Below, in pieces: positions 25,861-27,787 of a stretch of 64,000 nt of DNA. The notes under the pieces are model-generated. The model was not told the origin of the DNA, did not search any database, and saw only the letters and a list, made by a program, of their open reading frames with translations. This stretch comes from Ascidiella aspersa. Its lineage: Eukaryota. The stretch lies in contig OZ004612.1 in NCBI GenBank assembly GCA_963924565.1, positions 23,002,001-23,066,000 on the forward strand. Direction: 5' to 3'. Every line of letters starts with the position of its first letter. The first letter of the stretch is position 1. The position numbers and the translations under genes are program-made.

Positions 25861-27787
25861 CTACGAAAGATTTTCCGCAGTATAAGACGGAGAAAATTCT
25901 TGCTGCAAAACGGCATTACCGGAATAATAACCCTCGTCGGTGGAACTCAATGGTGAGCGAAAATTAATATTGGGCTGAAAATTTGCAGAATGATTTTGAA
26001 CATTAAAATTATTTTCAGGGTATGCAAATAACTGGCAGTTTTCATATGCAAGGGGTGATGTATTGTTCGATACCGGTAAACTTGCAGCGTTATAATCCTC
26101 GAACAAGAAAGGTTGTTGCGCGTCATAACCTTGTGGCGACATGACGTCAGGTGTAGGGTCTTGCCGATACGTCATCAAAGGTGACGTCTGGGGAAAGAAA
26201 ACCTGCTGCGACTCATGGCCGAGGACTTGTGCTGGAGATTGGCTGCTGGTGGGATGACTGTAAAACAAGCATTCGGGAGATAGTTGAGGCTGGTAAGTGC
26301 TGTAACCGTTCGACATCTGCATGTTGTTTTGTTGAACTGGTGACCAGTCGGCTTGGGGAAAATTAGGCGCCGAGAATTTGCTCCTGCAACGTTTAGTCGG
26401 TTGCTGGTTGACTTGAGCATTGCTTGCATAGTGATCGACGGCCGATATGCATCGAGCGTTCTTCGTTTTGCCTCCGTCACTTCGGAATCCCCTCGCGAAT
26501 GGATTGTTCTCGATTTTAAGCTGAGTAACCTTGAAATACATGGAAGTAGTGAAATGTTTTGTTTTACTTGATGATTTAAAATTTGAGTTCAATTTAGCCA
26601 AAATGTGCGTTAGTTTTGATTACCATTTTAATTTATATCATATATGAAAATTGTGAAATTTTTACATGTTATTTGCAATGTAATTTACCTCATGATTCTG
26701 ATAAGCCGTTACTGTGATGAATGTAGTTTTAGCGAAGGCAAAAGTCGACATCGGTTCGTATTGAATTCTGGAGACATCGCTTGTTCTGACAATGTGCACT
26801 CGCATTTGATATCGATGCATTGAATGGACGTTAAACTGTGTAATAAAATGATAAATTTATCCTATAGGTACAAAACTTGCACAAGAAAATTTGTATATAG
26901 AATTACTTTTCACGCAAAACTAATATCGGCGAACAGCAATTCACCTTATCGGAAGCAGTTTGTGAAAACGAGTTCGTGAGTTTGACTTTGTGAAATGAAA
27001 CCAAATCTTTCATCCATTTGCTTCCGGTAGATGGCGACTTGGGGTGAAGGTAAAACTTCGGAGGAAGACGAGGCTCTCCACGACCAGAAACCGCCCATTG
27101 TCCGTTCTAATTAACAGCAAATTCGTTATTGATGAGATTGACAATTTAATCACACTTCACAAATTAAAAAATATAAGCAAATTAAAAGAATATACATTTG
27201 TCCAGTGATAATTTTAATTATATAACTATATATTAGTTCTAACAATCATGCTACCTGGAATTTATAGCGATTGTCGTCCATACTGATTACGTCCATTAAA
27301 ACACAGTAATGTGCGTTCGGCTCAAGACCAGATAATTTCACCCGGTAACCCGGAAACATACGTCTGAAAGGAAAAATAACATTTAGCTTACCAAAAAAAT
27401 CCAAATAAATAAAAATAGTTTATATAAATTTATTACATTCAGTTGATAATAAATTGGTTTAATGAATGTATGGCACAAATAAATTTAATGATGCGTGTTA
27501 AAACAAAAATATTATTGATACCCTTACCTTCCCGGTTTTGTGACAATCATTTCAGTTTGAGCTGCAGAAAACTTGTTCCATATTTCTTTGTCTTGCAACT
27601 TGACGGAAAGGTTTGGTTCGAGAGGAGACAAAACGACTTGAGAATGTTCTTCTGTTCCACTTGTCGAAGGCGAAACTTTTCCAATCCCTGTTTCAAAATA
27701 CGCAATTTGATCCTGTTGTTCGATCGGTCGCACATCTTTGCTTTGCCATGTTGGATAGACAGTGTGGCTGAACATTGTGCTTTCCAT
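25861..27787 (-). CDS. Tbx6-r: T-box transcription factor, Tbx6-related gene A, 448 aa, 5 exons
   Basis: Exons 27528-27787, 27255-27363, 26945-27106, 26689-26835, 25861-26529; GT-AG; T-box motifs [59 protein letters not shown] at 25813-25818. Subfamily assignment is from resemblance to ascidian Tbx6-r and was not tested by a tree. Confidence 0.9.

Follow-up and report, generated by a model that had tools for sequence, protein, structure and literature searches.

An acidic motif kept in the tails of ascidian Tbx6-r.b-clade proteins is a candidate beta-TrCP phosphodegron

The window analysed here, a 64-kb stretch (64,000 nucleotides) of the 308.6-Mb Ascidiella aspersa genome, contains six T-box genes, here called A to F, arranged as a tandem cluster (Table 1). 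All six look intact, with GT-AG splice sites and spliced frames that have no internal stops, and when the last exon of gene E is used as a query against the genome all six matches lie inside the window. Judging by similarity to C, D and E, gene A probably starts at its second in-frame methionine, near 27787. Genes C and E are recent inverted duplicates with last exons that are 77% identical, and the window therefore supplies about three independent cases of the motif described below. Among A, C, D and E the T-boxes are 95–96% identical to E, and in the last exon A and D agree with E at about 45–53%. Genes C and D are 94.5% identical over a stretch that runs from exon 4 through intron 4 into the beginning of the last exon (37959–38342 and 42791–43174), and despite this upstream identity the tail of C is much nearer to that of E than to that of D, which looks like gene conversion inside the cluster.

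Table 1 T-box genes and tail motifs in the window (positions count from its first letter)
Feature	Position	Strand	Description
Gene A	25861–27910	−	Tbx6-r.b-clade T-box gene, five coding exons
Gene A motif	25921–25956	−	12 residues, candidate beta-TrCP degron; hexamer DEGYYS at 25921–25938
Gene B	30726–34575	+	Nearest to Phallusia and Ciona Tbx6b; putative start codon
Gene B motif	34387–34449	+	12 residues plus downstream TSLSNPDDD; hexamer DDGYFS at 34405–34422; same block in Ciona and Phallusia Tbx6b
Gene C	37401–39678	−	Tbx6-r.b clade
Gene C motif	37452–37487	−	12 residues; hexamer DEGIFS at 37452–37469
Gene D	42218–44274	−	Tbx6-r.b clade; no degron hexamer
Gene D degenerate site	42281–42316	−	12 residues; SPxxS retained, D-E-G gone
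Gene E	45724–47699	+	Tbx6-r.b clade; inverted duplicate of C
Gene E motif	47613–47648	+	12 residues; hexamer DEGNFS at 47631–47648; Asn at a usually hydrophobic position
Gene F	51779–54850	−	Groups with Tbx6-r.a proteins; no degron hexamer; provisional 5' end
Gene F DSVYSK	51803–51820	−	No Gly and no degron match; part of a different motif common to Tbx6-r.a proteins

Further traces of duplication lie around the genes. Downstream of E, at 48730–49141, the final part of the last exon of gene D and its 3' flank recur as an orphan copy (80% identical), which appears to be the remnant of another D-like duplicate. Partial copies of the gene A 5' region are found at 23430–23783 and 24575–24818 (77% and 83%), with shorter pieces resembling it at 36383–36489 and 47860–48011. 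By eye, and without a family scan, open frames at 18883–20860 resemble fragments of a retroelement integrase and endonuclease. High-copy genomic repeats lie in and beside gene B (31600–31980, 33350–33410 and 35720–36260) and are the source of nearly all RNA reads on the window. The exons of A, B and C received no reads in about 6% of one RNA run carrying the same species label, a result that is uninformative for a run of unstated stage, since other ascidians have these genes as embryonic ones. A DNA contig from a second sample, which spans the gene A motif, has no difference there among the 40 of 167 differences listed and is not counted as evidence.

In four of the six genes (A, B, C and E) the last coding exon encodes, in frame, the hexamer D-[E/D]-G-x-x-S, directly preceded by S-P-x-x-S-x. 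An earlier note on this DNA had placed the four hexamers correctly, with coordinates that span the hexamer only. In gene A the motif acid lies 25 residues from the C-terminus. The hexamer is absent from D and F, whose regions were read over 11 and 10 residues, respectively. A loose six-frame scan of the 64 kb returned six matches, namely the four tail hexamers and two in short non-T-box frames. The pattern D[SDE]Gx(2-3)[ST] arises by chance in 0.9–6% of shuffled tails (four window tails); it was set only after the motif had been seen, and the product of the per-tail chances is not valid as a probability because the sequences are related. Reading DSVYS of gene F as a G-to-V remnant of the degron is unsupported (p 0.10 and 0.38). 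The Tbx6-r.a proteins have a C-terminal motif of their own, [ST][VI]YS[MK]LHA, in four of the five a-type proteins seen (window 51791–51820; P0008, P0013 and P0015).

A tree of 30 T-boxes (six from the window, 16 from database ascidian proteins and eight outgroup) delimits where the hexamer occurs; it leaves out one truncated Clavelina model, the protein P0041 (with a T-box that was not separable) and the remaining outgroup matches. Genes A to E fall within a 14-row clade with Ciona and Phallusia Tbx6b (support 98/94), gene F groups with the Tbx6-r.a proteins (six rows, support 89/80, not starred), and Styela 686 and Molgula 478 pair up outside both. Of the sequences compared, those of Phallusia are probably the nearest to this ascidian. 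The hexamer is present in 10 of the 14 rows of the Tbx6-r.b clade, being retained in two species of Ciona, in Phallusia and in Clavelina, and in none of the six r.a-group rows. The b-clade rows that lack it are D, Phallusia P0007, a Ciona 388-aa paralog and one Clavelina copy (DEGCYL, no S+5). The earlier note had described a motif conserved across divergent Tbx6 tails and had regarded absence from orthologs as telling against it. We find it surviving in three other genera, so the description stands for four window genes and their r.b-clade orthologs; it does not extend to D and F, which went unmentioned, or to the r.a group. The motif thus characterizes a single clade, within which it has been lost repeatedly, and not all Tbx6-r proteins.

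In database searches, a profile built from the window tails matched three of 6041 candidates, the Tbx6b proteins of Ciona savignyi, C. intestinalis and Phallusia, all of which have DEGYIS followed by T-[SA]-[LV]-S-N-P-D-[DE]-E. Ciona Tbx6b as a query recovered 43 proteins, 17 of them ascidian Tbx6-r, and D[SDE]Gx(2-3)[ST] occurs in eight of these 17 tails. In other T-box tails it was seen in 0 of 27 (1.97 expected from shuffles) and in metagenome tails in 0 of 20 (1.19 expected), or 0 of 47 against about 3 expected. The 80 metagenome T-box loci (best 57% identity) served as controls only, none of them being closely related to ascidian Tbx6-r. The ESM Atlas returned no usable match, and none of the six matches from a representative-library search is a new ascidian protein.

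The motif is a conserved island in a diverged region in which Pfam finds no domain. In five of six pairs tested the best-conserved 12-residue window of the tail overlaps it, the exception being A versus E, in which the segment after the T-box is better conserved. In the best window, 11 of 12 residues of gene A are the same in Ciona Tbx6b, compared with 31% over the tail, and the motif is kept across genera while the tails are only 23–33% identical. Five of the seven residues shared by A and B are encoded by different synonymous codons, which indicates a conserved protein and not copied DNA and points to selection on the protein. Pairwise local alignments of whole tails were not used, given that low-complexity matches dominate them (the motif is within both aligned segments in 14 of 28 pairs). 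That the tail is disordered is weakly supported by an AlphaFold model in which it is a low-confidence coil (pLDDT about 30) in a model that is poor overall (mean pLDDT 40).

Across these proteins the fixed core consists of D0, an acid or Ser at +1, G+2 and S+5. At +3, where a beta-TrCP degron would have a hydrophobic residue, most of the proteins carry Tyr or Ile: genes A and B have Tyr, gene C has Ile and gene E has Asn, and the orthologs have Tyr, Ile or Cys. In the four window proteins, as in the two from Ciona, the upstream S-P is at −6; in Phallusia it is at −4; Clavelina retains DDGxYS with no upstream SP. The SP that proline-directed priming, as suggested in the earlier note, would need is present in A, B, C, E, Ciona and Phallusia and missing from Clavelina, so that such priming would not be universal. 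In B-type proteins the block extends further, with S-T-[SA]-[LV]-S-N-P-D-[DE]-[DE] after the hexamer, which suggests priming from the downstream side instead. This S+9-N-P-D-acid part is found only in B, Ciona and Phallusia, and S+9 is missing from A, C and E. The Ciona 388-aa paralogs have Y-F-[ST]-S-P-Q-N-S-P-D-D in register with the downstream half and lack DEG.

The forms DSGIGS in Styela and DSGIGWS in Molgula both have downstream an SP and, at +12 to +14, an acid patch, which is the offset seen in B-type proteins, and Styela S+1/S+5/T+9 has the four-residue spacing of B-type S+5/S+9. Homology of this stolidobranch DSG to DEG is plausible, and the DSG forms suggest a Ser-to-acid swap at a phospho position. 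The alignment of the two is marginal (p 0.04–0.12 over several windows; the best of three windows gives 0.042 and 0.088). For Molgula, a second register, with the acid patch set on DEG, scores about equally (21.0 versus 19.8). Among near-identical proteins of the Styela clava P0038 cluster, 12 of the 15 members listed, including one with an altered C-terminus, carry D-P-G-Y-V-S, with Pro where the degron needs an acid; this suggests that G-Y-x-S may be retained for some other partner. The cluster has 16 members on at least two contigs and is a separate Styela expansion of fast-evolving Tbx6-r-like genes.

As published, the consensus for beta-TrCP reads DpSGX(1-4)pS, with acidic substitution tolerated (PMC4474599), and DDG in CDC25A/B and DDGFDSD in CReP are beta-TrCP degrons (PMC4474599, PMC10487276), as is the REST site at E1009/S1013, which has CK1 sites and upstream ERK sites (PMC4973598). 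The pattern of D0, phospho-Ser or acid at +1, G+2 and Ser/Thr at +5 or +6 is present in four of the six window proteins and eight of the 17 database ascidian Tbx6-r proteins, and the comparison with the acidic REST variant made in the earlier note is supported. The receptor is also encoded in the genome: a beta-TrCP gene on G000:C2 has PF12125 above the cut-off, F-box exons and exons for all WD40 repeats, with exons close to the Phallusia and human proteins, and the Ciona beta-TrCP protein matches human beta-TrCP1 chains with E 2e-276. We therefore consider the conserved D-[E/D]-G-x-x-S of Tbx6-r.b-clade tails a candidate SCF-beta-TrCP phosphodegron that would need phosphorylation of S+5, and give this reading a probability of about 0.58. 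A table in PMC4474599 gives some DSG-bearing proteins as stable or not ubiquitinated, so a consensus match is no guarantee of turnover.

In the mechanism we propose, Glu or Asp would take the place of the first phosphoserine of DSGxxS, so that a single phosphorylation, at S+5, would complete the site; SCF-beta-TrCP would then bind and the life of the protein would be shortened. The candidate kinase routes are deduced from the CK2, GSK3 and CK1 consensus sequences. In the B-type proteins (gene B, Ciona and Phallusia) the fixed S+9-N-P-D+12 would be a CK2-type site priming GSK3 at S+5, whereas in A, C and E, given that S+9 is absent, CK1 acting from the upstream phospho/acid cluster would be more probable. 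An ERK or CDK input through the upstream S-P would be optional and lie outside the core. Beta-TrCP substrates typically have an acceptor lysine about 9–13 residues upstream, and the window proteins have none there: no lysine lies within 15 residues of the motif in any of the four, the nearest being at −147 in A, +45 in B, +16 in C and −21 in E. In Ciona the nearest is at +16 and in Phallusia Tbx6b at −340; Styela and Molgula alone have one at −6 to −10. Such a scarcity of lysines weighs against the degron reading, as do the missing upstream SP in Clavelina and the losses of the motif among paralogs. The distance to an acceptor lysine is a factor in the rate and not part of the binding motif. 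In PMC10614628, Ciona Tbx6b::mNeonGreen is described as too faint to measure at mid tailbud, when GFP reporters under the same driver are visible; this is consistent with a short life, also with an earlier end of transcription, and does not amount to a half-life measurement.

The block could instead be an element for docking or activation that is regulated by phosphorylation and serves a coactivator or some other partner, with no control of stability, which we regard as unlikely. A lysine-poor tail with acidic and aromatic residues would suit such an element, as would the Styela family with DPGYVS, the downstream half retained without DEG in the Ciona 388-aa paralogs, and the description, in PMC6589888, of r.b and r.c as myogenic and r.a as not. 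However, the fixed Gly and S+5 would suit an extended phosphopeptide more than an amphipathic helix, and A, C and E keep the hexamer yet lack the downstream half. Moreover, if the Ciona 388-aa proteins are Tbx6-r.c, as we infer from the tree and a shared contig, DEG is unnecessary for myogenic activity.

On the FBXW7 consensus [T/S]-P-x-x-[S/T/E/D] and that of CK2, S-P-x-x-S might itself be the working unit: the acids would make S−2 a CK2 site, this would prime GSK3 at S−6 to give an FBXW7-type phosphodegron, and the beta-TrCP likeness would be secondary. Genes A, B, C and E have S-P-x-x-[S/T], as do the two Ciona proteins and, despite their loss of DEG, D and Phallusia P0007, and Phallusia Tbx6b has S-P-P-S-D. 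We nevertheless think this quite improbable, as [ST]Pxx[ST] occurs in 43–70% of shuffled tails, Clavelina keeps DDGxYS without S-P-x-x-S, G+2 and S+5 are left unexplained, and the phospho-acceptor is Ser and not the usual Thr. A slightly less probable reading is that the motif is an inherited remnant or weak site of little effect, with Tbx6-r levels set by transcriptional shut-off and T-box-directed (Ripply-type) turnover. The repeated losses of the hexamer and the Ripply-like gene in the genome favour it; that several genera keep the motif, in tails of 23–33% identity and with synonymous divergence, speaks against it. Phosphotyrosine, caspase, tankyrase, SPOP and KEAP1 readings, judged by eye against consensus sequences, were dropped, since the key residues are not common to the proteins.

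As a candidate beta-TrCP degron, the motif would serve to clear a self-activating muscle regulator after a transient embryonic pulse, possibly alongside a Ripply route. According to PMC6589888, a review of tunicate myogenesis, FGF/ERK prevents Halocynthia Tbx6 in mesenchyme from acting and autoregulating, and the end of the Tbx6-r feedback loop in muscle 'remains to be studied'; a 2026 paper puts forward dilution, degradation or partitioning of muscle factors in the heart lineage (PMC12799156). The candidate motif makes the shut-off of Tbx6-r autoregulation, a published open question, testable; a destruction tag, if real, would help to explain how an early muscle switch goes off, and natural controls exist in the paralogs, some of which have the motif and others not. 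More speculatively, and with the odds against it, the motif may be a kinase-gated off-switch of Tbx6-r positive feedback, in which FGF/ERK and CK2/GSK3 inputs would finish the degron, and mesenchyme and the heart lineage, as well as muscle at the close of its pulse, would be cleared of the muscle determinant; an ancestral DSG, kept in Styela and Molgula, would have become a one-phosphate DEG/DDG in the r.b clade, and repeated loss would have produced duplicates with different protein lifetimes. Since the beta-TrCP degron class itself is well known, the surprise is moderate. In the openly readable literature searched, we found no description of a Tbx6 degron or of this motif in ascidians, in agreement with the earlier note. 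The motif is real and conserved, apparently undescribed, and a candidate member of a known degron class, with a function that we infer from sequence.

A close known counterpart is Ciona Tbx6-r.b (Ci-Tbx6b, NP_001027752.1), which belongs to the same clade of the T-box tree and has the same motif within a block of 21 residues. The window differs in having five b-clade genes. Four of them, A, C, D and E, make up a local expansion, to which one Phallusia protein is sister, and no longer have the block's downstream half. Mouse Tbx6 is a T-box mesoderm regulator cleared by the proteasome, as we propose for the ascidian proteins, and the Ascidiella genome also has a Ripply-like gene (G000:C7:26096011-26096169; L091; L092 5083 and 2134, minus strand) with PF14998 at 49.7 bits, a WRPW exon some 3 kb upstream on the same strand and LPFQ instead of FPIQ. 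According to PMC5953544, degradation of mouse Tbx6 through Ripply2 requires the T-box, which also suffices for it, and can do without the C-terminus; the E3 ligase is unidentified. A tail degron would differ in its determinant from Ripply-dependent turnover, with which the earlier note contrasted it: the mouse determinant, as published, is in the T-box and the ascidian candidate in the tail. The Ripply-like gene makes the contrast with vertebrates weaker than claimed, and the two routes may coexist. We found no role for this gene in ascidian T-box turnover in the literature searched, and PMC6589888 questions whether tunicate Tbx6-r is orthologous to vertebrate Tbx6/16.

The acidic degrons of REST, CDC25A/B and CReP resemble the ascidian motif in having Asp, an acid for the first phosphoserine, Gly and a Ser three residues on, and differ in that few lysines are near the candidate ascidian motif. 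REST is also alike in being a transcription factor with the site in its tail near the C-terminus and proline-directed sites upstream, although its ERK sites are about 150 residues upstream whereas SP is adjacent to the candidate ascidian site. Degrons of the beta-catenin type, DSGxxS, are primed by a kinase relay. The ascidian priming site would differ in being acid-directed (CK2-like) and is missing in A, C, E and Clavelina, but Styela DSGIGS with S+1/S+5/T+9 and the S+5/S+9 spacing of the B-type proteins recall the same arrangement.
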